64,000 nt of DNA from Polaromonas sp. (lineage in GTDB: Bacteria; Pseudomonadota; Gammaproteobacteria; Burkholderiales; Burkholderiaceae_C), in the NCBI GenBank assembly GCA_031422495.1, contig JANPLX010000100.1, positions 197-64,196 on the forward strand, written 5' to 3'. Shown one piece after another: positions 993-53,396 of this stretch. The notes beneath the pieces are model-generated. The model searched no databases and had not been told where the DNA came from. It saw only the letters and a list, made by a program, of their open reading frames with translations. Numbering within the stretch: the stretch's first letter is position 1; each line of letters opens with the position of its first letter. A program made the translations under genes and the position numbers.

Positions 993-2708
993 ATGAACAA
1001 AAAGCACTATGGAGACGATATGCTGACAAAAAATAAATTTTGGCCGAAACGCGTACCACGCAGTATCACGCCGCCGCAAACACCGTTGTGGGACAACTTG
1101 GCGATCAGCGCCAAGCGCTACCCAGACAAAGCTGCCTTGGTGTTTTTTGGTAGCGTGTTGACTTATGCTGAATTGATGCAAAAAGCAGAGCGACTAGCTG
1201 CTTATTTATCTCAGCTAGGTGTAAAAAAAGGCGACAGAGTTGTGCTGAACATGCAAAATTGCCCGCAGCTCATCATTGCACATTGGGCGATATTGCGGGC
1301 CAATGCTGTGGTCGTCCCTGTGAACCCGATGAACCGCGCTGAAGAATTAAAGCATTACGTTACTGACCCTGATGCCAAAGTCGCCATCACCACGGGAGAT
1401 TTGGCAGCTGAGTTGGTGCTGGCTAACGATGCATTAGAGCCGAGCTTGCGCTTGAATCACCTCATTGTGACTCAATTTACGGATGCATTCGACGCACAAG
1501 TCGAAGGCGAAGACGCACCGCCTACGGCTTGGCGCGATTGGTTATTGACCAAGCATGCATTGCCTCGATTACAGGGTGATGTGGCACATGCTTGGCTGGA
1601 CGCTATAGCTTGTCAAGACAACCCTCCAGAGCTGACCGTCAAACCTGCTGACCTTGCCATCTTACCCTACACCAGCGGCACGACGGGGCTGCCCAAAGGC
1701 TGCATGCATACACAAGCCAGCATCATGCACAACGCCGTTGCTAGCAATTTATGGGGCAACGGTTCGGCAGAAACCGTGGGCTTGGTCGTTGTGCCGATGT
1801 TTCATATCACGGGCATGGTCAGCGTGATGCACGGCAGCATTTACAGCGGCGCGACCATGGTGCTGATGCCGCGATGGGACAGAGATCTAGCTGGTCGTTT
1901 GATTTCGCGCTACCAAGTGACGCATTGGACAAACATCCCCACGATGGTGATTGATTTGATGGGCAGCCCAAATTTCGAGAAATTTGATTTGACCAGCTTG
2001 GTCACCATTGGTGGGGGGGGCGCTGCCATGCCGCAAGCAGTGGCGCAGCGCTTGTTTGACCAATTTGGTTTGCGCTATGTAGAAGGTTATGGTTTGACGG
2101 AAACAGCTGCACCTTCCCACAGCAACCCACCTGATGCGCCAAAACAGCAGTGCTTAGGCATCCCGTTCATGGGCGTTGATGCACGCGTGATTGACCCAGA
2201 AACCTTGGCTGAAATGCCACAGGGCGAAGCTGGAGAAATCATCATGAATGGACCACAAATATTCTCTGGCTACTGGAAACGACCAGATGCAACAAAGTTG
2301 GCTTTCATCGAGAGAGACGGCAAAAGTTTTTTCCGCTCGGGTGATTTGGGTCGTATCGACGAAGATGGCTACTTCTTTATCACCGATAGGCTCAAACGCA
2401 TGATCAACGCCAGCGGCTTCAAAGTTTGGCCGGCAGAGGTAGAAGCTTTAATGTTCCGCCACCCTGCCATTCAAGAGGCTTGCATCATCAGCACGCAAGA
2501 TACCTATCGCGGTGAATCCGTCAAGGCAGTCGTCGTTTTACGTGGTACACATAAGACAACGACCGAACAAGAAATCATCGACTGGTGCAGAGGCAACATG
2601 GCCGTGTATAAAATGCCGCGCACAGTTCAATTCGTCGATGCATTGCCTAAAAGCGGCAGTGGCAAAGTGATGTGGCGGCTGTTGCAGGATGCCGAAAAGG
2701 TTACTTAA
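993..2708 (+). CDS. AMP-dependent acyl-CoA synthetase / long-chain fatty-acid-CoA ligase
   Basis: 571-aa ORF with the adenylate-forming motifs YTSGTTGLPKG, GYGLTE and SGDLG..DEDGYFFITDRLKRMI. The true start may be the internal MLTKNKF at about 1020. Confidence 0.9.
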   Translation: MNKKHYGDDMLTKNKFWPKRVPRSITPPQTPLWDNLAISAKRYPDKAALVFFGSVLTYAELMQKAERLAAYLSQLGVKKGDRVVLNMQNCPQLIIAHWAILRANAVVVPVNPMNRAEELKHYVTDPDAKVAITTGDLAAELVLANDALEPSLRLNHLIVTQFTDAFDAQVEGEDAPPTAWRDWLLTKHALPRLQGDVAHAWLDAIACQDNPPELTVKPADLAILPYTSGTTGLPKGCMHTQASIMHNAVASNLWGNGSAETVGLVVVPMFHITGMVSVMHGSIYSGATMVLMPRWDRDLAGRLISRYQVTHWTNIPTMVIDLMGSPNFEKFDLTSLVTIGGGGAAMPQAVAQRLFDQFGLRYVEGYGLTETAAPSHSNPPDAPKQQCLGIPFMGVDARVIDPETLAEMPQGEAGEIIMNGPQIFSGYWKRPDATKLAFIERDGKSFFRSGDLGRIDEDGYFFITDRLKRMINASGFKVWPAEVEALMFRHPAIQEACIISTQDTYRGESVKAVVVLRGTHKTTTEQEIIDWCRGNMAVYKMPRTVQFVDALPKSGSGKVMWRLLQDAEKVT

Positions 2709-2725: not shown

Positions 2726-3991
2726 TCAAGTTTGAAATGCAAAATCCACCTCAGGCGCTAAGCCGCTGATGATGCGGGCAATCGATTTTCCGGAACCACA
2801 AGCGTGGGTCCATCCCAACGTGCCGTGGCCTGTGTTGAGGTAAAAATTGCTGAGTTTGGTTTTGCCGATCAAAGGTACATTGGAAGGCGTGGCTGGTCGT
2901 AAACCGGTCCAAAATTGGGCTTGCTCTGCATCGCCAGCGCCTGGAAAGAGCTGCTCTACACGTTTCACGATCGCTTCGCAGCGAACGCGGTTTAAATATC
3001 GGTCATAGCCATTGAGTTCCGCCGTTCCCGCGATGCGTATTGTGTCGCCCGCAGGCGTGGTATAGCGCGAAAACACCAATTTGTACTCATCGTCAGTCAA
3101 AGACACTTGATAGGCCTTGGCAGCATCGACGACTGGCATGGTGACTGAGTAGCCTTTGGCCGGGTAAATGGGTAGGTTGATGCCCAACGGTGCGGCATAA
3201 ATGGGGCTCATAGAGCCCATCGCCATCACATAGGCATCAGCGCGAACGCGTTGAAACCGACCTTCGCTGTCAGTCGCTTCGACATGGTCAATCGCGCCAC
3301 CTGCTTCACGTAGCGCGGTAACTGTGTGGCTCATCAAAAACTTGACGCCAGCGTTTTGGCACAACTTCACCAGTTCACGCGCAAATAAATTAGCATCGCC
3401 AGATTCGTCTTCCGCAGTATAGGTTGCACCGGCTAACTGGGGGCGAATGTGTTGCAGGGAAGGCTCAAGGCGAACTGCTTCGTCTGCAGAGATGACTTGC
3501 CGCTCACAACCCAAAGAACGCATGAGTTCAGCGGGTTTCAATGCACCGTCAAATTCTTTTTGCGTCGTATAAAAATGCAAAATACCCTGTGTCCGCTGGG
3601 CGTAGCTCAAGCCCGTGTCGCGTCGCAGCGCTTGCAACATGTCGCGGCTATACGTGCCTAATCGCACAATTTGTTCAATGTTATGACGGGTACGCGCAGG
3701 GGTGCATTCACGCAAAAACTGCAATCCCCACAGCCATTGGCGCATGTCTGCGCGAATTCTGAAGAGTAAAGGTGCGTCCTCTTTGCCCAACCACTGCAAC
3801 ACTTTGAGCGGTGCACTCGGATTCGCCCAAGGCTCAGCATGGCTCACTGATATTTGACCGCCATTGGCAAAGCTGGTTTCCGCAGCGGGTGAAGCTTGCC
3901 GGTCTATGACGGTGACCTCATGACCCAACTGAGAAAGATAATAGGCAGAGCTGACGCCAAGCAAACCGCTACCGAGTACTAAAACACGCAT
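2726..3991 (-). CDS. dadA: FAD-dependent D-amino-acid dehydrogenase family oxidoreductase (DadA-like), downstream of a glycine riboswitch
   Basis: 421 aa. The N-terminal MRVLVLGSGLLGVSSAYYLSQLGHEVTVIDR dinucleotide fold and C-terminal FWTGLRPATPSNVPLIG...NTGHGTLGW are collinear with E. coli DadA. Confidence 0.85.
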   Translation of the reverse strand: MRVLVLGSGLLGVSSAYYLSQLGHEVTVIDRQASPAAETSFANGGQISVSHAEPWANPSAPLKVLQWLGKEDAPLLFRIRADMRQWLWGLQFLRECTPARTRHNIEQIVRLGTYSRDMLQALRRDTGLSYAQRTQGILHFYTTQKEFDGALKPAELMRSLGCERQVISADEAVRLEPSLQHIRPQLAGATYTAEDESGDANLFARELVKLCQNAGVKFLMSHTVTALREAGGAIDHVEATDSEGRFQRVRADAYVMAMGSMSPIYAAPLGINLPIYPAKGYSVTMPVVDAAKAYQVSLTDDEYKLVFSRYTTPAGDTIRIAGTAELNGYDRYLNRVRCEAIVKRVEQLFPGAGDAEQAQFWTGLRPATPSNVPLIGKTKLSNFYLNTGHGTLGWTHACGSGKSIARIISGLAPEVDFAFQT

Positions 3992-4004
3992 TTTTGACCT
4001 TTTT

Positions 4005-4068
4005 ATGGATGCAGCCGGCGATTTTATTGTCTAAGTAGCTATAAAAATAATAGCAAAAAACTATAGGA
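4005..4068 (-). repeat. Composite repeat, copy A (GCCGGC core 4013-4029, AT palindrome GCTATAAAAATAATAGC 4038-4054), in the 5' UTR of the dadA-like gene
   Basis: agccggcgattttattgtctaagtagctataaaaataatagc aligns with copy G, tagccggcgtatttattgcctacagcgctattaaaaatatag. Confidence 0.8.
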
Positions 4069-4089
4069 AAAAACAAACGTACGCATGCT

Positions 4090-4338
4090 GCTGTGCCGCT
4101 CCCCCTGTCCTTGGTACCTGAGAGATTCACAGAGAGCCAGTTGGCATTCTGTTTGCTCCTTCGGTGCAAGTCATGCGTTAACACTGATCGGTGATGACGC
4201 TACTTGGCTCTCCAGACGGCTTTTAAAAAGGTGCAGTACATCACCCAAAATTGACGTAGGTCAATTTTATGGATACCTGAGCGTTCATGGGAGTTTGCGC
4301 CTTCGGTGGCATAGTTAGACTATGCTCTCTCCTGCAAA
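4090..4338 (-). promoter_or_regulatory. Tandem glycine riboswitch (two aptamers) on the minus strand, upstream of the dadA-like gene
   Basis: Aptamer 1 (fwd 4271-4338), read on the reverse complement: GCAGGAGAGAGCAUAG-UCUAA-CUAUGC-CACCGAAGGCGCAAAC...CGCUCAGGUAUCC. Aptamer 2 (fwd 4096-4220): GUCUGGAGAGCC...GCACCGAAGGAGCAAAC...AAUCUCUCAGGUACCAAGGACAG. These are the glycine-riboswitch hallmarks: GGAGAG, CACCGAAGG(G/A)GCAA and CUCUCAGG..AAGGACAG. A U-rich tract (fwd 4066-4078) follows. Confidence 0.8.
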
Positions 4339-4384
4339 ATCAATTGTAGTATAAATTTAGACGTTGAAATAATAAACAAAAGGA

Positions 4385-5410
4385 ATGAATATGTTTGAAA
4401 CCGTCATAGCTGGCAGCTTGCCAAAACCCGCTTGGTTGTCTGAAACACAAAAACTCTGGCCACAGTGGAAATCTGAAGGTGCAGAACTGGCTCAAGCCAA
4501 AATAGATGCCACGCTGCTGTGGATCAAAGCGCAAGAAGATGCGGGCCTGGACATCATTGGCGACGGTGAGCAATCACGCCAACACTTCGTACACGGCTTT
4601 TTAGAGCAAGTAGAAGGCATTGATTTTGAGCACAAAGTGACCATGGGCATACGTAACAACCGCTACGACGCCCAAGTGCCACAAGTAGTGTCCGCACTTA
4701 AGCTCAAGGGGCGCGTGCATGAAGTTGAAGCTGGAATTTTGCGTGCGCACACCAAGAAAAAAATCAAATTCACATTGCCTGGCCCAATGACGATTGTGGA
4801 TACGGTTGCCGACAAGTTTTATGGTGACCGTGTGGTCATGGCGATGGCGTTTGCCGATTTGTTGAACCAAGAAGCACGCGCACTGCAAGCGCAAGGCGTG
4901 GACATCATTCAGTTCGATGAGCCAGCGTTTAACGTTTACATGCAAGACGCCGCCGACTGGGGTGTCGCAGCCGTCGAGCGTGCCGCTGCTGGCTTGACAT
5001 GTACAACGGCAGTGCACATTTGCTATGGCTACGGCATCAAAGCCAATGACGATTGGAAAAAAACACTGGGTGATGAGTGGAACCAGTACGAATTGGTACT
5101 ACCCGTTTTGGCTAAAAGCAGCATCAAACAAGTCAGTTTAGAGAGCTACCAGTCGCACGTCCCAGCACATTTGATGGCTTTGCTAGCAGGCAAAGACGTG
5201 ATGGTGGGTGTGATTGATGTTGCCAGTGACACCATTGAAACGCCTGAGCAAATTGCCGACACCATTGGCCGCGCCCTGCAGTTTGTGCCAAAAAACAAGT
5301 TGTTCCCCTGCACCAATTGCGGCTTAGCGCCCATGAGCCGTGAAGTGGCTATCAAAAAGCTTGAGGCTTTGGCGCAAGGTGCTGCTTTGGCGCGAACACG
5401 TTTTGCTTGA
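4385..5410 (+). CDS. Cobalamin-independent methionine synthase family protein (short MetE-like, about 340 aa)
   Basis: The 341-aa ORF reads MFETVIAGSLPKPAWL...GDGEQSRQHFVHGF...IQFDEPAF...CTNCGLAP. The last segment holds the Zn-ligand Cys region typical of the MetE C-terminal catalytic domain family. Confidence 0.8.
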   Translation: MNMFETVIAGSLPKPAWLSETQKLWPQWKSEGAELAQAKIDATLLWIKAQEDAGLDIIGDGEQSRQHFVHGFLEQVEGIDFEHKVTMGIRNNRYDAQVPQVVSALKLKGRVHEVEAGILRAHTKKKIKFTLPGPMTIVDTVADKFYGDRVVMAMAFADLLNQEARALQAQGVDIIQFDEPAFNVYMQDAADWGVAAVERAAAGLTCTTAVHICYGYGIKANDDWKKTLGDEWNQYELVLPVLAKSSIKQVSLESYQSHVPAHLMALLAGKDVMVGVIDVASDTIETPEQIADTIGRALQFVPKNKLFPCTNCGLAPMSREVAIKKLEALAQGAALARTRFA

Positions 5411-6597: not shown

Positions 6598-6662
6598 AAA
6601 TTAGGTAGTTATGGTTCTAGCCGGTGTATTAATTGATTAAGTAGCTATCATAAATATAGCTT
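6597..6662 (-). repeat. Composite repeat, copy B, abutting two convergent stop codons
   Basis: ggttctagccggtgtattaattgattaagtagctatcataaatatagc. Both the core and the AT palindrome are present. Confidence 0.8.
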
Positions 6663-14190: not shown

Positions 14191-14258
14191 CCCTAAAACG
14201 CTATAAATATAATAGCTGTTTAAGCAATAAATACGCCGGCTAGAGGCGTACTTAAGTG
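14191..14258 (+). repeat. Composite repeat, copy C
   Basis: ccctaaaacGCTATAAATATAATAGCtgtttaaGCAATAAATACGCCGGCTAGAGGCGTActtaag. The core can fold as a TACGCC/GGCGTA hairpin. Confidence 0.85.
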
Positions 14259-26571: not shown

Positions 26572-28985
26572 TGAATGCACCTACCACGCTCAAAGAACTG
26601 ATGCCAAACTTGGCCGACTCAGCGGCTCAGGGCACAGACGTAATCCACGAATCCGCCCGACTACACGTCACCGGCGAAGCGGTCTACACCGACGACATTC
26701 CCGAACTGCGTGGAACGCTCTATGCAGCGCTGATTTTGTCCCCCGTCGCCCACGGCGAGTTGATTGGTGAGGGCATTGACCGCGCCGCCATCCTAGCTGA
26801 GCATGGTGTGGTGGCGGTTTACACAGCGAGCGACATTCCGGGTGAAAACAACTGCGGCCCAATCATCCATGACGACCCGTTTCTGGCTTCTGGGAAGGTC
26901 GAATTCATCGGCCAAGCCATTGCAGTGGTCGTGGCACGGGACATGCTTTACGCCCGCGAAGTCGCTAAAAAAGCGGTGGTCAAAGTTAAAGAATTACCAG
27001 CGATTTTGACGATTGACGAAGCCATGACAGCCAAAAGCTTCATCATGCCACCCAAAGGAATCACACGTGGCACGCCGGCCGAGGCCATCAAAACCGCGTC
27101 GCACACCCTCAAAGGCGAAACCACCTGCGGCCAGCAGGAGCAGTTTTACCTAGAAGGCCAAATCACCTACGCTGTACCGCGTGAAGATGGTCAATTGACG
27201 CTGTATGTGTCGACCCAACACCCCGACGGCAACCAGCGCGAAGCAGCAGCAGCGCTGAATTTGTCCACGAATGACGTCGAAGTGATCTGCCGCCGCATGG
27301 GCGGTGCTTTTGGCGGCAAAGAGGGCAATGCCAGCATCTTCTCGCAAAGTGCAGCATTGGCAGCCTTCAAGCTGCAAAAGCCGGTAAAACTGCGTGTGAA
27401 CCGTGATGACGACATGATGATCACCGGTAAACGCCACGATTTCCGCGCCCAATACGAGGTGGGTTTCGATGACGCCGGCCATATTTTGGGTGTTGACGTG
27501 GTTTTAGCCTCGCGCTGCGGCTACAGCACCGACTTTTCTGGCCCAGTGAACGACCGCGCCGTGTTGCACATCGACAACTGCTATTACCTGCCGAATCTTT
27601 CCATCATCAGCCACCGATGCAAAACCAATATGCAAAGCGCCACAGCGTTTCGCGGCTTTGGCGGCCCGCAGGGCATGTTTGCGATTGAGACGGTCATCGA
27701 GCAGATTGCCCAAAAATTAGGAAAAGACCCGTTGGACGTGCGTAAGGCCAATTTGTACAAAGACGCTGCGGTTTCTGGCAATATTGACACGATCACCACC
27801 CAATACGGCCAGCAGATTGAAGACTGGATTGGCGATAAGGTGATGACTCAATTAGAAGAGGAATCTAACTATACCCAGCGCAGAATAAGCCTAGCTAGCT
27901 ACAACAAAACGAGCAAGTACAAGAAGAAGGGCATCGCCCTCGTACCGTTGAAATTCGGTATCAGCTTCACCGCCACCATGTTGAATCAGGGCGGCGCGCT
28001 GCTGAATATTTACATGGACGGCTCGGTCAGCGTCAACCATGGCGGCACGGAGATGGGGCAGGGCTTGAACACCAAAATGGCGCAGGTCGCGGCGGATGGT
28101 TTGGGCATTCCGGTCAGCTTGGTTCGGGTGACGGGTACGGACACGCAGAAAGTGCCGAACGCCTCGGCCACAGCGGCTTCTAGCGGTGCAGACATCAACG
28201 GTGCGGCGGTGAATAACGCTTGCGACCAGATGCGGGTTCGCTTGGCTGCAGTGGCAGGGCGGATGCTTAATTGCGCACCAGATGCTATTAAATTCATAGC
28301 TGGACAGGCAATAAATACGCCGGCTATGTCTAAAAATGACACTAAAAATAGTGTTTCATGGCAAGAAGTCGTCAAACAAGCTTGGCTAGACCGCGTCGGC
28401 CTGTCTGTGACGGGGTTTTACATGACACCAGACATCAAATACGACTTCGCCACCCTGAACGGCAAGGCGTTTTACTACTTCTGCTACGGCGCAGCGGTGA
28501 CCGAGGTCGAAATCGACACCCGCACTGGCGAGTGGTGGCTGCAAAAGGTCGATATCGTGCACGACGCCGGCAAATCCATCAACCCTGCTATTGATTTAGG
28601 TCAAATCGAAGGCGCTTACGTGCAAGGCATGGGCTGGTTGACGATGGAGGAGTGCATTTGGGACATGAAAGCCAAGACGATCGATGGCGTGGACGGACTG
28701 GGTCGCGGAAAACTCCTCACCCACGGCCCCAGCACCTACAAAATCCCGGTGGCGAGTGACATTCCGGAGCATTTCAAAGTCAGCTTTTTCGACGGCGAAA
28801 ACATCAAACCCACGCCGTTTAAGAGCAAAGCCGTCGGCGAGCCGCCGCTGATGCTGGCTTTAAGTGCGTATTTTGCGATCCGTGACGCCGTCAGCGCCTC
28901 TGCAGACCACAAAGTCCCCGTTTTCATGGACGCACCTGCTACACCAGAGCGGATTTTGATGGCTTGCGAAGCCTTGAAACGCTAA
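26571..28985 (+). CDS. xdhB: Xanthine dehydrogenase molybdopterin-binding large subunit
   Basis: Start MNAPTTLKE overlaps the xdhA stop (TAATG). Motifs GGAFGGKE, FRGFGGPQG and GEPPL are present. The ORF-track start 26478 is an upstream extension. Confidence 0.9.
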   Translation: MNAPTTLKELMPNLADSAAQGTDVIHESARLHVTGEAVYTDDIPELRGTLYAALILSPVAHGELIGEGIDRAAILAEHGVVAVYTASDIPGENNCGPIIHDDPFLASGKVEFIGQAIAVVVARDMLYAREVAKKAVVKVKELPAILTIDEAMTAKSFIMPPKGITRGTPAEAIKTASHTLKGETTCGQQEQFYLEGQITYAVPREDGQLTLYVSTQHPDGNQREAAAALNLSTNDVEVICRRMGGAFGGKEGNASIFSQSAALAAFKLQKPVKLRVNRDDDMMITGKRHDFRAQYEVGFDDAGHILGVDVVLASRCGYSTDFSGPVNDRAVLHIDNCYYLPNLSIISHRCKTNMQSATAFRGFGGPQGMFAIETVIEQIAQKLGKDPLDVRKANLYKDAAVSGNIDTITTQYGQQIEDWIGDKVMTQLEEESNYTQRRISLASYNKTSKYKKKGIALVPLKFGISFTATMLNQGGALLNIYMDGSVSVNHGGTEMGQGLNTKMAQVAADGLGIPVSLVRVTGTDTQKVPNASATAASSGADINGAAVNNACDQMRVRLAAVAGRMLNCAPDAIKFIAGQAINTPAMSKNDTKNSVSWQEVVKQAWLDRVGLSVTGFYMTPDIKYDFATLNGKAFYYFCYGAAVTEVEIDTRTGEWWLQKVDIVHDAGKSINPAIDLGQIEGAYVQGMGWLTMEECIWDMKAKTIDGVDGLGRGKLLTHGPSTYKIPVASDIPEHFKVSFFDGENIKPTPFKSKAVGEPPLMLALSAYFAIRDAVSASADHKVPVFMDAPATPERILMACEALKR
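28284..28352 (+). repeat. Full-length composite repeat in frame inside xdhB
   Basis: GCTATTAAATTCATAGCtggacaGGCAATAAATACGCCGGCTAtgtctaaaaatgacactaaaaatag. It matches intergenic copy L (53325) at 36 of 43 nt. It encodes DAIKFIAGQAINTPAMSKNDTKNS. Confidence 0.85.
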
Positions 28986-29064: not shown

Positions 29065-29964
29065 GTGGATTTCACCGCCGAATTTCAACGACTTTTGGCC
29101 AGTGAAGACGCAGTAGTTGTCTCCATAGCGTCCACCCAAGGCTCAGTCCCGCGCGAGACGGGGACGTGGATGGCGGTGTTTGCCGGCCACATCGTCGGCA
29201 CGATAGGCGGCGGTCACGTCGAATTTGAAGCCATTACCGAAGCTAGAGCGCTTTTACGCGGCAATTATTCTTCAGAGCCGTCGTTCCCGCGAAGGCGGGA
29301 ATCCACTGCGGATGACAGCACAAGTTCGTATGCAAAACGATATGTCTTAGGCCCAAGCCTAGGCCAATGCTGCGGTGGTGTGATGACTTTATGCTATCAA
29401 AAATATAGCTATTTAGGCATTAAATACGACGGCTATAGCCAAAATATGCCTAAAAATGAGGCATTTAAGTCGATTTCATACCCAAAACTCCAAAACGTCG
29501 CCCTATTCGGCGGCGGTCACGTCGGCAAAGCCATCGTCAATATCCTCAGCACCTTGCCCATGCAGGTGATGTGGATCGACAGCCGCGATGAAATCTTCCC
29601 AGACGAGCTTCCCAGTAATGTCATCTGCGAACATTCCGACCCTGTGCAAGCCGCAGTCAACGACTTAGCTGCCGGCTGCCACATCCTCATCATGAGCTTC
29701 AGCCACGCCGAAGACCTAGACATCGTCGCCGCATGCCTATTGCGCCAGCGGGAAAGGGCGGATTTGTCTTTCATAGGCTTGATTGGCAGCAAAACCAAGT
29801 GGGCAACTTTTCGGCATCGACTTGAGGACAGAGGATTCACCGCGTCGGAATTGGCGCACGTCACCTGTCCGATAGGGGTAGACGGTGTGAAAGGGAAGGA
29901 GCCTGAGGTGATTGCGGTTGGGGTGGCGGCACAATTACTAAAATTGCGAAGTTTAACCTCTTAA
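29065..29964 (+). CDS. xdhC: Xanthine dehydrogenase accessory (Moco insertion) protein XdhC
   Basis: 299 aa (GTG start). Motifs GSVPRE..GT, GGGHVE, LGQCCGG and the C-terminal Rossmann LFGGGHVGKA are present. Confidence 0.85.
   Translation: MDFTAEFQRLLASEDAVVVSIASTQGSVPRETGTWMAVFAGHIVGTIGGGHVEFEAITEARALLRGNYSSEPSFPRRRESTADDSTSSYAKRYVLGPSLGQCCGGVMTLCYQKYSYLGIKYDGYSQNMPKNEAFKSISYPKLQNVALFGGGHVGKAIVNILSTLPMQVMWIDSRDEIFPDELPSNVICEHSDPVQAAVNDLAAGCHILIMSFSHAEDLDIVAACLLRQRERADLSFIGLIGSKTKWATFRHRLEDRGFTASELAHVTCPIGVDGVKGKEPEVIAVGVAAQLLKLRSLTS
29281..29305. repeat. Short GC hairpin repeat in frame inside xdhC
   Basis: TCGTTCCCGCGAAGGCGGGAATCCA (TTCCCGC/GCGGGAA stem) encodes SFPRRRES inside a variable XdhC loop. 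Confidence 0.6.
29393..29470 (+). repeat. Full-length composite repeat in frame in the xdhC inter-domain linker
   Basis: GCTATCAAAAATATAGCtatttaGGCATTAAATACGACGGCTATAGCCaaaatatgCCTAAAAAtgaggcatttaag. It is about 80% identical by eye to copy K2 (50353). The consensus GGC TAG AGC reads GGC TAT AGC here. It encodes CYQKYSYLGIKYDGYSQNMPKNEAFKS. Confidence 0.85.
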
Positions 29965-31329: not shown

Positions 31330-31388
31330 GCTATATTTTTAATAGCAATACAGGCAATAAATATGCTGGCTAACGGCGTATTACAGTG
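31330..31388 (+). repeat. Composite repeat, copy H
   Basis: GCTATATTTTTAATAGCaatacaGGCAATAAATATGCTGGCTAACGGCGTATTacag. Confidence 0.8.
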
Positions 31389-47098: not shown

Positions 47099-48406
47099 AT
47101 GAATATCCTCATTAAAAATGGCCGAGTCATCAATCCAGCCACAGGATTTGATGAAATATGTGACATAGCCGTTGAATCACCTCATGTTATAGCTATTAAA
47201 AATATAGCGAAAAACTTCACACCTGATACAACGATTGACGCCACAGGCTGCATCGTCACTGCTGGTTTTGTTGATTTGGCGGCACGTTTACGCGAGCCTG
47301 GCCATGAGCACGAGGGCATGCTGCAAAGTGAGCTGGCCGCTGCAGTGGCTGGTGGTGTGACTAGTTTGGTTTGCATGCCAGACACTGAGCCGGTATTGGA
47401 CGAGCCCGGTTTGATCGAAATGCTCAAATTCCGCGCTGAAAAGCAGCACCAATCGCGTGTTTTCCCGCTAGGTGCGCTCACTGTGAATCTCAAAGGCGAA
47501 GTGTTGACCGAGATGGTCGAGTTGTCCGAAGCCGGCTGCGTGGGCTTTAGCCAAGCAGAAGTTCCTTTAGAAAACACCCAAGTGCTACAGCGCGCTTTGC
47601 AATACGCCAGCACCTTTGGCTACACCGTGTGGCTGCGCCCGCAAGACATCCATTTGGGCAAAGGCGTCGCTGCCAGCGGCGCTTTGGCTACGCGGATGGG
47701 TTTAAGTGGTGTTCCCGTCGCGGCAGAAACAATTGCGTTGCACACGATTTTTGAGTTGATGAAAGCGACCACAGGCTCCCGCGTGCATATTTGCCGCATC
47801 AGCAGCGCTGCAGGCGTGGCACTCGTGCGTCAAGCCAAGGCAGATGGCTTGTTGGTCAGCTGCGATGTGAGTATTAACTCACTTCATTTGACTGACATCG
47901 ATATGGGCTACTACGACAGCCGCGCTAGGCTCAACCCACCCCTGCGCCAGCAGCGCGACCGCGATGCCCTGCGTGCGGCCTTGGTTGACGGCACGATTGA
48001 CGCCTTGGTATCCGACCACACGCCGGTTAGCGACGACGCCAAAACCTTACCTTTCGCCGAAGCCGAAGCCGGTGCTACTGGTTTGGAGTTGCTGCTCAGC
48101 CTCGCCCTCAAATGGCAGTCAGAAAGCAGCGACAAAACGCTGACTTTGGCCAATGCACTCGCCACCATCACCAGCCAACCTGCCAAAATATTGGAGGCCA
48201 ATTTGGGCGCTGAGTACGCCAGCTTGGGCCAATTGGTTGTGGGCGGCGTTGCCGACATTTGCATTTTCGACCCCAAAGCGGCTTGGACTGTTTCCTCAAG
48301 CAGCTTGCGCAGCCAAGGCAAACACACGCCATTCGTGAGCTACGAGCTGCCCGGCAAAGTGGTGGCCACCATCGTGGCTGGGCATGTGGCTTTTGAAGCG
48401 AAGTAA
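47099..48406 (+). CDS. Dihydroorotase-like protein (PyrC'/PyrX type, partner of PyrB)
   Basis: 435 aa. It is a dihydroorotase (DHOase)-family fold directly after pyrB. The first metal motif reads GFVDLAARL instead of the usual HxH, as in non-catalytic PyrC'. Confidence 0.8.
   Translation: MNILIKNGRVINPATGFDEICDIAVESPHVIAIKNIAKNFTPDTTIDATGCIVTAGFVDLAARLREPGHEHEGMLQSELAAAVAGGVTSLVCMPDTEPVLDEPGLIEMLKFRAEKQHQSRVFPLGALTVNLKGEVLTEMVELSEAGCVGFSQAEVPLENTQVLQRALQYASTFGYTVWLRPQDIHLGKGVAASGALATRMGLSGVPVAAETIALHTIFELMKATTGSRVHICRISSAAGVALVRQAKADGLLVSCDVSINSLHLTDIDMGYYDSRARLNPPLRQQRDRDALRAALVDGTIDALVSDHTPVSDDAKTLPFAEAEAGATGLELLLSLALKWQSESSDKTLTLANALATITSQPAKILEANLGAEYASLGQLVVGGVADICIFDPKAAWTVSSSSLRSQGKHTPFVSYELPGKVVATIVAGHVAFEAK
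47164..47209 (-). repeat. Composite repeat copy in frame near the pyrC' N-terminus
   Basis: catagccgttgaatcacctcatgttataGCTATTAAAAATATAGcg. It has 16 nt identical to copy G, and ctcatgt plus the core remnant align with copy J. It encodes ...IAVESPHVIAIKNIAK.... Confidence 0.65.
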
Positions 48407-49202: not shown

Positions 49203-49267
49203 ATTTTTAGGTGTTTTTAGGCTCTAGTCGGCGTATTCATTGCTCATGTAGCTATTTTTTTTATAGC
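49203..49267 (-). repeat. Composite repeat, copy J
   Basis: tttttaggCTCTAGTCGGCGTATTCATTGCtcatgtaGCTATTTTTTTTATAGC. Confidence 0.8.
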
Positions 49268-50352: not shown

Positions 50353-50422
50353 GCTATCAAATAAATAGCGAATTAGGCAATAAATACGCCGGCTAGAGCC
50401 ATATTTAGTCCCTAAAAAGACG
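50353..50422 (+). repeat. Composite repeat, copy K2, ending at the ABC ATPase stop codon
   Basis: GCTATCAAATAAATAGCgaattaGGCAATAAATACGCCGGCTAGAGCCatatttagtCCCTAAAAAgacg. Confidence 0.85.
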
Positions 50423-53324: not shown

Positions 53325-53396
53325 GCTATATATTTAATAGCTGGATAGGCAATAAATACGCCGAATAGCGATATTTGCCTCTAATTTGGTCCCTCG
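53325..53396 (+). repeat. Composite repeat, copy L, starting 2 nt after the permease stop
   Basis: GCTATATATTTAATAGCtggataGGCAATAAATACGCCGAATAGCGatatttgcctctaatttggtCCCTcgac. Confidence 0.85.

Follow-up and report, generated by a model that had tools for sequence, protein, structure and literature searches.

The locus

The 64-kb stretch of Polaromonas sp. DNA analysed here (contig JANPLX010000100.1; in the following, the window) carries on its minus strand a tandem glycine riboswitch and, behind it, a single gene for a 421-residue, flavin adenine dinucleotide (FAD)-dependent dehydrogenase of the DadA family (2726..3991). The riboswitch lies in the 393-nt gap between this gene (open reading frame 3991..2726, minus strand) and a divergent gene (4385..5410, plus strand), the product of which is a short methionine synthase of the MetE type. 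The DadA-like reading frame is the sole credible gene downstream of the riboswitch on that strand; the next gene (993..2708, plus strand) is convergent, and the DadA-like gene is therefore monocistronic. The original prediction, that the only gene placed under this RNA encodes a DadA-like FAD oxidoreductase and not the glycine cleavage proteins GcvTHP, is thus borne out.

Membership of the protein in the DadA subfamily is indicated by a match to NCBIfam NF001933 (D-amino acid dehydrogenase; PRK00711) of 495.9 bits over residues 1–416, the cut-off being 383, and by the Pfam domain DAO (PF01266; E 1.1e-65). Its N-terminus, MRVLVLGSGLLGV, contains the GxGxxG motif of FAD binding. The protein is 40% identical (59% positives) to E. 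coli DadA (b1189) over 417 residues (E 6e-115), and the two are equal in length and share the N-terminal FAD motif; they differ in that E. coli dadA forms an operon with the racemase gene dadX, whereas the window gene is monocistronic and RNA-controlled. Neither a dadX racemase gene nor one for an Lrp/DadR-type regulator adjoins the window gene; the Variovorax orthologue is solitary as well, and context does not define the family. The nearest solved structures are those of glycine oxidases (ThiO; PDB 4YSH, 1RYI, 1NG3), which belong to the same DAO fold superfamily and convert glycine to glyoxylate, but the relationship is distant (E 1e-15 or weaker); against the ThiO equivalog (TIGR02352) the protein reaches 125.4 bits, with a cut-off of 250.8, there are no thiamine genes in its context, and it is not a ThiO orthologue.

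The tandem glycine riboswitch

The two-aptamer glycine riboswitch that had been predicted on the minus strand is genuine. The Rfam model RF00504 (Glycine) gave two significant matches on this strand, 4344..4259 (39.8 bits, E 1.3e-04) and 4225..4095 (53.3 bits, E 3.8e-08), both above the curated gathering score of 32; they are the sole Rfam matches in the whole window, and a permissive local scan of the intergenic region agreed. The conserved blocks are found in aptamers 1 and 2, respectively, at 4332–4327 and 4213–4208 (GGAGAG), 4308–4300 and 4166–4158 (CACCGAAGG), and 4281–4276 and 4122–4117 (CUCAGG); GGAGAG, CACCGAAGG(C/A)GCAA and CUCAGG are present in both aptamers and kept in 64 related leaders. 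As to the three diagnostic blocks that the original prediction assigned to each aptamer, GGAGAG and CACCGAAGG do occur in both; the third, CUCUCAGGUACCAAGGACAG, is complete in aptamer 2 alone, aptamer 1 reading CGCUCAGGUAUCC...GUACUGCA instead.

The anatomy of the RNA was corrected by aligning 64 orthologous leaders by their anchor motifs, which places aptamer 1 at 4232..4336, aptamer 2 at 4095..4220 and, between them, an 11-nt linker, CCUUUUUAAAA (4221..4231). The Rfam alignment ends aptamer 1 at 4259 and thereby forces a poor, 4-bp UUUU/AAAA P1; in the corrected form, P1 pairs UGCAG (4336–4332) with CUGCA (4236–4232). A GUA precedes the P1-pairing CUGC(A), the partner of (U)GCAG, in 52 of the 64 loci, and the compensatory variant GGCAG/CUGCC occurs four times; a further one, GACAG/CUGUC, was read by eye in locus L017 (loci are numbered here with the prefix L), where the automatic scan chose another 3′ partner. 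The P2 helix of aptamer 1 appears in 58 distinct sequences, all of which form hairpins (mean z −3.5), and P2 and P3b of aptamer 2 in 60 and 61 distinct hairpin-forming sequences; for these three helices the mean z ranges from −3.0 to −3.5. In aptamer 1 the P3b hairpin is missing, and P3 is, towards its tip, an almost invariant unpaired loop, GCAAACUCCCAUnnACGC. For P1 of aptamer 2, the 5′ strand is GCCGUCUG (4220–4213) and the 3′ strand forms part of the invariant CAGGGGGAGCGGC (4107–4095); CUCAGGUACC(A/G)AGGACAGGGGGAGCGGC is almost invariant among the loci. In the relatives, the helices P1, P2 and P3 are upheld by compensatory change, with P1 of aptamer 2 being invariant and hence uninformative.

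The invariant CUCCC loop in the P3 region of aptamer 1 (4289–4293) is complementary to the likewise invariant GGGAG (4099–4103) in CAGGGGGAGCGGC of aptamer-2 P1. Both are unchanged in the 64 loci, and covariation speaks neither for nor against an inter-aptamer or alternative pairing.

The comparison also changes the view of the linker, which had been described as unusually long (about 50 nt) and as containing a perfect 9-bp AU hairpin at 4243–4264. Such a hairpin does exist, its strands being AAAAUUGAC (4268–4260) and GUCAAUUUU (4255–4247); it is, however, part of an expansion of the P3–P1 junction of aptamer 1 (4240..4275), and the real linker has the 11 nt given above. From the 3′ strand of aptamer-1 P1 to the GCCG of aptamer 2 there are 10–13 nt in 53 of the 64 loci. 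The junction itself, counted from CUCAGGU to GUA, is 6 nt long in 30 loci, while about 20, from Polaromonas, Variovorax and Rhodoferax, carry a hairpin insert in a junction of 18–52 nt, with unrelated sequences and a predicted folding free energy (dG) of −3.7 to −18.3 kcal/mol; in a small number of other loci, a junction of 13–18 nt does not fold. With 38 nt and a predicted dG of −10.7, the window belongs among the expanded forms, and the AU hairpin is, by this comparison, a lineage-variable insertion inside aptamer 1 and not a linker element. The truncation of aptamer 1 at 4259, with its poor P1, probably accounts for both the low score of this aptamer and the 50-nt linker first perceived.

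Compared with the tandem glycine riboswitches of B. subtilis gcvT and V. cholerae (VCI-II), the window RNA likewise consists of two homologous aptamers with GGAGAG, CCGAAGG and CUCAGG in their cores; its linker, too, is short, one platform follows downstream, and a catabolic target is in keeping with the ON logic reported where such switches govern glycine cleavage. It differs in that the target is of the DadA family and not gcvT(H)P, in having no terminator, in a predicted start which leaves no 5′ leader for a leader-linker helix, and in the shape of aptamer 1, with a P1 of 4–5 bp, no P3b hairpin and a variable junction hairpin.

Conservation of the riboswitch–gene pairing

Among the orthologous loci with enough upstream sequence, core-motif counts place the riboswitch upstream of the gene in 67 of 78, and in a sample of 20 an Rfam glycine aptamer lies immediately upstream of the orthologue in 17. 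These loci are from Polaromonas, Variovorax, Acidovorax, Rhodoferax, Ideonella, Piscinibacter and Ramlibacter. Across Comamonadaceae and further Burkholderiales, among them Variovorax, Acidovorax, Rhodoferax, Ramlibacter, Ideonella, Piscinibacter and Rubrivivax, orthologues are 80–99% identical to the window protein; one from a Polaromonas metagenome-assembled genome (L001) is 99% identical and has a leader nearly identical to that of the window, and a second (L002, 94%) shows the same architecture. Plasmid-borne DadA homologues found by tblastn, including copies from Comamonas and Variovorax, reach at most 46% identity. Since identity is at least 80% across genera but no higher than 46% to the plasmid copies, the riboswitch-linked proteins are an orthologous group of their own within the DadA subfamily.

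The flanking genes vary among genera, which argues that riboswitch and gene travel as a unit. About 20 loci have genes for a TctC receptor and an M20 amidohydrolase as neighbours; in loci of the Rubrivivax, Ideonella and Piscinibacter type, the order is a gene for a TctC-family solute receptor, the M20 amidohydrolase gene, the riboswitch and then dadA (L024, L030, L031, L033, L034, L037, L042, L047, L052, L057, L062 and L072, at approximately 500–2750). An amidohydrolase of this type might set free an amino acid that is bound in an N-acyl conjugate, which is a hint from context in favour of the explanation given below. In L023 and L025 the riboswitch is absent and dadA directly follows the M20 gene (by 70 nt in L025); it is absent as well from L028, L039 and L051, where the gap is larger, and from L053 and L074, in which dadA follows a gene for an FMN-binding domain.

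Variovorax orthologues are annotated with 435 residues, as in V. paradoxus (CP063166.1; L082, 10001–11308), that is, with about 15 N-terminal residues beyond the form of 420–421 residues. Such an extension would enter the riboswitch leader, which makes the annotated start doubtful; it probably lies too far upstream.

Promoter, leader and expression platform

A hexamer of the type TANNNT, mostly TACAAT or TAGAAT, ends 10–12 nt ahead of GGAGAG in 56 of the 64 leaders, and in GC-rich relatives a TTGGCG-type −35 box is found 17 nt further upstream. In the window the hexamer is TACAAT (4343..4348, minus strand); because a consensus scan gave no full sigma-70 match in the window, we infer this −10 box from its conservation. 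This puts the predicted start of transcription at about 4336 ± 2, directly at P1, the stem with which aptamer 1 opens, and leaves no 5′ leader.

A helix between 5′ leader and linker (P0, or kink-turn) has been reported for many tandem glycine switches. The corresponding candidate in the window, AAUUGAU (4343–4337) with GUCAAUU (4255–4249), was rejected, as AAUUGAU overlaps the conserved −10 box (4348–4343) and thus probably lies upstream of the transcript. No leader-linker complementarity was visible in the leader sequences compared; the P0/kink-turn is common among tandem examples but does not define them.

The predicted −10 box of the riboswitch is just 37 nt away from the ATG of the divergent MetE-like gene (4385, plus strand), so close that the promoter or 5′-nontranslated region of the latter has to share DNA with the riboswitch, though on the other strand.

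An AU-rich leader of 103 nt (3992..4094) separates aptamer 2 from the start codon and is presumably the expression platform, with a Shine-Dalgarno-like AAGG (3998..4001), read from AAAAAGGUCAAAAAUG, 6 nt ahead of the start codon. Its possible function was modelled by two-state folding of each locus, with the 3′ strand of aptamer-2 P1 either free (apo) or blocked (glycine-bound) and the accessibility of the Shine-Dalgarno sequence compared. In the 26 leaders of at most 100 nt, the modelled accessibility rose by more than 0.1 in 14 and fell likewise in three (L057, L059, L062); in these sequences, a CU-rich tract separates the Shine-Dalgarno sequence from the AUG and is complementary to the G-rich strand. 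This is the pattern that a translational ON switch would be expected to give in such a model.

Two further candidates in the leader were rejected. Long-range pairings seen by eye in long leaders were not recovered by RNAalifold, which returned from 26 long leaders only the GCUAU hairpin described below. A hydrophobic upstream reading frame of 15 codons, MRTFVFSYSFLLLFL (4039–4086, minus strand; AUG at 4086–4084), is not conserved in L002 or in the Variovorax leaders; it begins 12 nt after the GGGGGAG tract of the leader and stops within the repeat hairpin.

A leader hairpin and a dispersed repeat

The GCUAU hairpin is part of a repeat, about 45 bp long and dispersed in the window, of which one copy occupies 4011..4054 (minus strand) in the leader. 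This copy consists of GCUAU-N7-AUAGC (4054–4038), six nucleotides and GACAAUAAAAUCGCCGGCUGC (4031–4011). The consensus of the repeat is GCTAT-N7-ATAGC-N6-GGCAATAAATACGCCGGCTA. Its palindrome pattern matches 11 times in the window, with 0.2 matches expected; ten of the matches, that in the leader included, share their flanks, while the eleventh (31997, with an N9 spacer) looks unrelated. Apart from 4011–4054, the copies are located at 6610–6660, 14200–14245, 28284–28330, 29393–29440, 31330–31375, 47165–47208, 49225–49267, 50353–50400 and 53325–53370; they occur in both orientations and are mostly intergenic, just after stop codons or between convergent genes. In this the element resembles the REP type, and no Rfam family matched it.

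In 26 orthologous leaders, which represent at least four genera (Polaromonas, Variovorax, Acidovorax, Ramlibacter), a hairpin of the form GCUAU(C)-loop-(G)AUAGC is present 44–53 nt ahead of the dadA ATG, with covariation from U-A to C-G (L004–L012, L021, L035, L041, L044, L046, L060, L061 and L069–L073, at approximately 2935–2955). Outside Polaromonas, the palindrome was not dispersed in the related loci compared. Conservation of both sequence and position suggests either a specific partner, such as a protein or nuclease, or a structural task within the expression platform. To sigma-70 and sigma-54 promoters and to known operators, the palindrome showed no convincing match when compared by eye with their consensus sequences.

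Known precedents

The pairing of a glycine riboswitch with dadA has already been catalogued, though not discussed, which corrects the implication of the original prediction that dadA would be a novel target. In the RegPrecise compilation of RNA regulons (Sun et al. 2013, PMC3766115, Supplementary file 1), dadA is listed in the glycine-riboswitch column for Burkholderia xenovorans, B. vietnamiensis, Ralstonia eutropha H16, Cupriavidus taiwanensis and C. metallidurans, and, within the Rhodobacterales, for Paracoccus denitrificans, Loktanella and Oceanicola. The listed cases resemble the window in the riboswitch family and in a solitary gene called dadA beside a separately controlled gcvTHP operon; the likeness is one of gene name, and the supplementary tables searched include no genome of the Comamonadaceae. 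In the literature searched, the terms “glycine riboswitch” and “D-amino acid dehydrogenase” were not found together.

The enzymatic precedent is DadA6 of Cupriavidus necator, likewise an FAD-dependent protein annotated as D-amino-acid dehydrogenase, whose role in converting glycine to glyoxylate is the function proposed here for the window protein. Its gene is induced about 200-fold on glycine, the enzyme, placed in an E. coli strain that serves as a glyoxylate sensor, converted glycine to glyoxylate, and deletion of dadA6 abolished growth of C. necator on glycine (Claassens et al. 2020, bioRxiv 10.1101/2020.03.11.987487); a riboswitch is mentioned neither there nor in the follow-ups of that work. 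A blastn search of plasmids with the window riboswitch gave no match; representatives and names of clusters formed at 50% reached Casimicrobiaceae, Moraxella and Sinimarinibacterium, and no Cupriavidus; and an exact scan for the primer dadA6-for hit two metagenome contigs, which had no DadA homologue, reverse primer or glycine aptamer.

Interpretation and alternatives

The explanation we favour, with a probability of roughly 0.7, is that the tandem glycine riboswitch turns on a dedicated, DadA-type glycine dehydrogenase. Transcription would start about 7 nt past the TACAAT box, directly at aptamer 1, and proceed through the two aptamers (4336–4232 and 4220–4095) with their 11-nt linker. Abundant glycine would bind the aptamers, stabilise P1 of aptamer 2 and hold the G-rich strand CAGGGGGAGCGGC, whereupon the 103-nt leader would permit expression of the lone downstream gene; in the short-leader relatives, the G-rich strand may otherwise pair with the CU-rich tract at the ribosome-binding site, which would make a translational ON switch. 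The FAD enzyme would then oxidise glycine to glyoxylate and ammonium and pass the electrons to the respiratory chain, by analogy to DadA6 of C. necator, and thus provide a route of glycine disposal or assimilation independent of the glycine cleavage system. That the enzyme is induced by glycine and probably oxidises it, as the original prediction had it, fits the conservation of the pairing in 67 of 78 loci as well as the C. necator precedent. What the aptamers are and how they are built, the family of the gene and the persistence of the pairing are demonstrated; start of transcription, ON direction, substrate and output step are proposals.

Several observations weigh against this explanation. 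Enzymes of the DadA type typically prefer D-alanine, and substrate preference is not readable from sequence. The riboswitch is missing in 11 of the 78 orthologous loci, and binding of glycine by the tandem RNA (4336–4095) is a prediction from the identity of its aptamers. In the window leader no terminator-like site was found; an intrinsic terminator after aptamer 2 was considered and rejected, as the U-runs there have no stable stem preceding them, and the leader folds, at −22.5 kcal/mol (z +1.43), no better than shuffled sequence. The two-state model is equally uninformative for the other long leaders and at this locus, with an accessibility of the ribosome-binding site of 0.72 in the apo and 0.78 in the glycine-bound (holo) state, and over all 64 loci it gave 16 increases versus 17 decreases. 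The ON direction in the window thus rests on the function of the gene and on analogy and would follow from these and not from structure. As for the precedent, DadA6 may reasonably be supposed to be both the riboswitch-controlled DadA of strain H16 and the orthologue of the window protein; RegPrecise is silent on which of the H16 dadA paralogues bears the riboswitch.

Three other explanations, each of which we consider less likely than a glycine-ON switch driving a glycine dehydrogenase, have to be weighed. The riboswitch might be real and its target nevertheless an ordinary, broad-specificity D-amino-acid (D-alanine) dehydrogenase, with glycine being a proxy for amino-acid or peptidoglycan turnover and not the substrate. 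Passing the DadA subfamily cut-off, full-length similarity to E. coli DadA at 40% identity and failing the ThiO glycine-oxidase model (125 bits versus 250.8) are what this explanation would lead one to expect. It is unlikely all the same, as riboswitches nearly always control genes acting on their own ligand, the gene adjoins neither a dadX racemase nor an Lrp/DadR-type regulator, the riboswitch-linked proteins form an orthologous group apart from other DadA copies, and a member of the DadA family, DadA6, does oxidise glycine in vivo. Quite unlikely is that the RNA is an OFF switch, or effectively a singlet in which aptamer 1 is a non-binding ghost scaffold and aptamer 2 alone senses glycine: the GGAGAG, CACCGAAGGCGCAA and CUCAGG of aptamer 1 are kept in essentially all 64 loci, unlike in ghost aptamers, OFF logic goes with transporters and not with catabolic genes, and dadA6 is induced, not repressed, by glycine. 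Aptamer 1 does, however, have features that such a scaffold might show, namely the inserted hairpin, the short P1 of 4–5 bp, the missing P3b and a distal P3 which is an unpaired, nearly invariant loop; it scores 39.8 bits here and 33–40 in relatives, being detected at gathering in seven of 17 loci, context-dependent degradation of one aptamer of a tandem has been described (Crum et al. 2019), and the platform modelling gave no clear direction.

It is highly improbable, finally, that the riboswitch is decaying in this Polaromonas lineage, where insertion of the repeat and AT-drift in the leader would have uncoupled it from dadA, so that the gene would now have constitutive expression or depend on a secondary promoter within the leader. 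Such a decay would agree with a leader without detectable alternative structure, a ribosome-binding site predicted open in both states and the copy of the dispersed repeat at 4054–4011, but both aptamers are intact and above gathering, the leader is nearly identical in L001 and of the same architecture in L002, and the hairpin of the repeat is kept at the same spot in other genera which do not have the repeat dispersed.

The explanation by a glycine-ON switch and a glycine dehydrogenase may be extended, although we regard the combination as rather doubtful. The riboswitch-linked DadA proteins would then be dedicated, quinone-linked glycine dehydrogenases and make up a distinct clade that is widespread in the Burkholderiales. 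Their native regulator would be a tandem glycine riboswitch of a leaderless type, in which the junction hairpin of aptamer 1 can expand, and the GCUAU-loop-AUAGC hairpin, at its fixed distance from the start codon and multiplied in Polaromonas as a dispersed repeat, a second, undescribed control element of the leader, recognised by a protein or nuclease.

The current picture of glycine riboswitches is not changed by these findings. Rather, a target which had been catalogued but not discussed, dadA, is tied to a concrete candidate role in a second, glycine-cleavage-independent route of disposal or assimilation, from glycine to glyoxylate, a route which is also of interest for engineering the reductive glycine pathway. 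The strong conservation in Comamonadaceae, moreover, offers many natural variants, which differ in the length of the leader and in whether aptamer 1 has the expansion hairpin, and in which the coupling of a tandem switch to expression may be studied.

Neighbouring genes

The surroundings of the DadA-like gene in the window include genes for an acyl-CoA ligase, the MetE-like methionine synthase, a protein of the beta-lactamase family, argF and argD. In Pseudacidovorax intermedius (L058), an Rfam match to the Burkholderia small RNA Bcj11 (RF02835, 110 bits) lies at 76–197 on the minus strand, about 2.8 kb upstream of the dadA orthologue.

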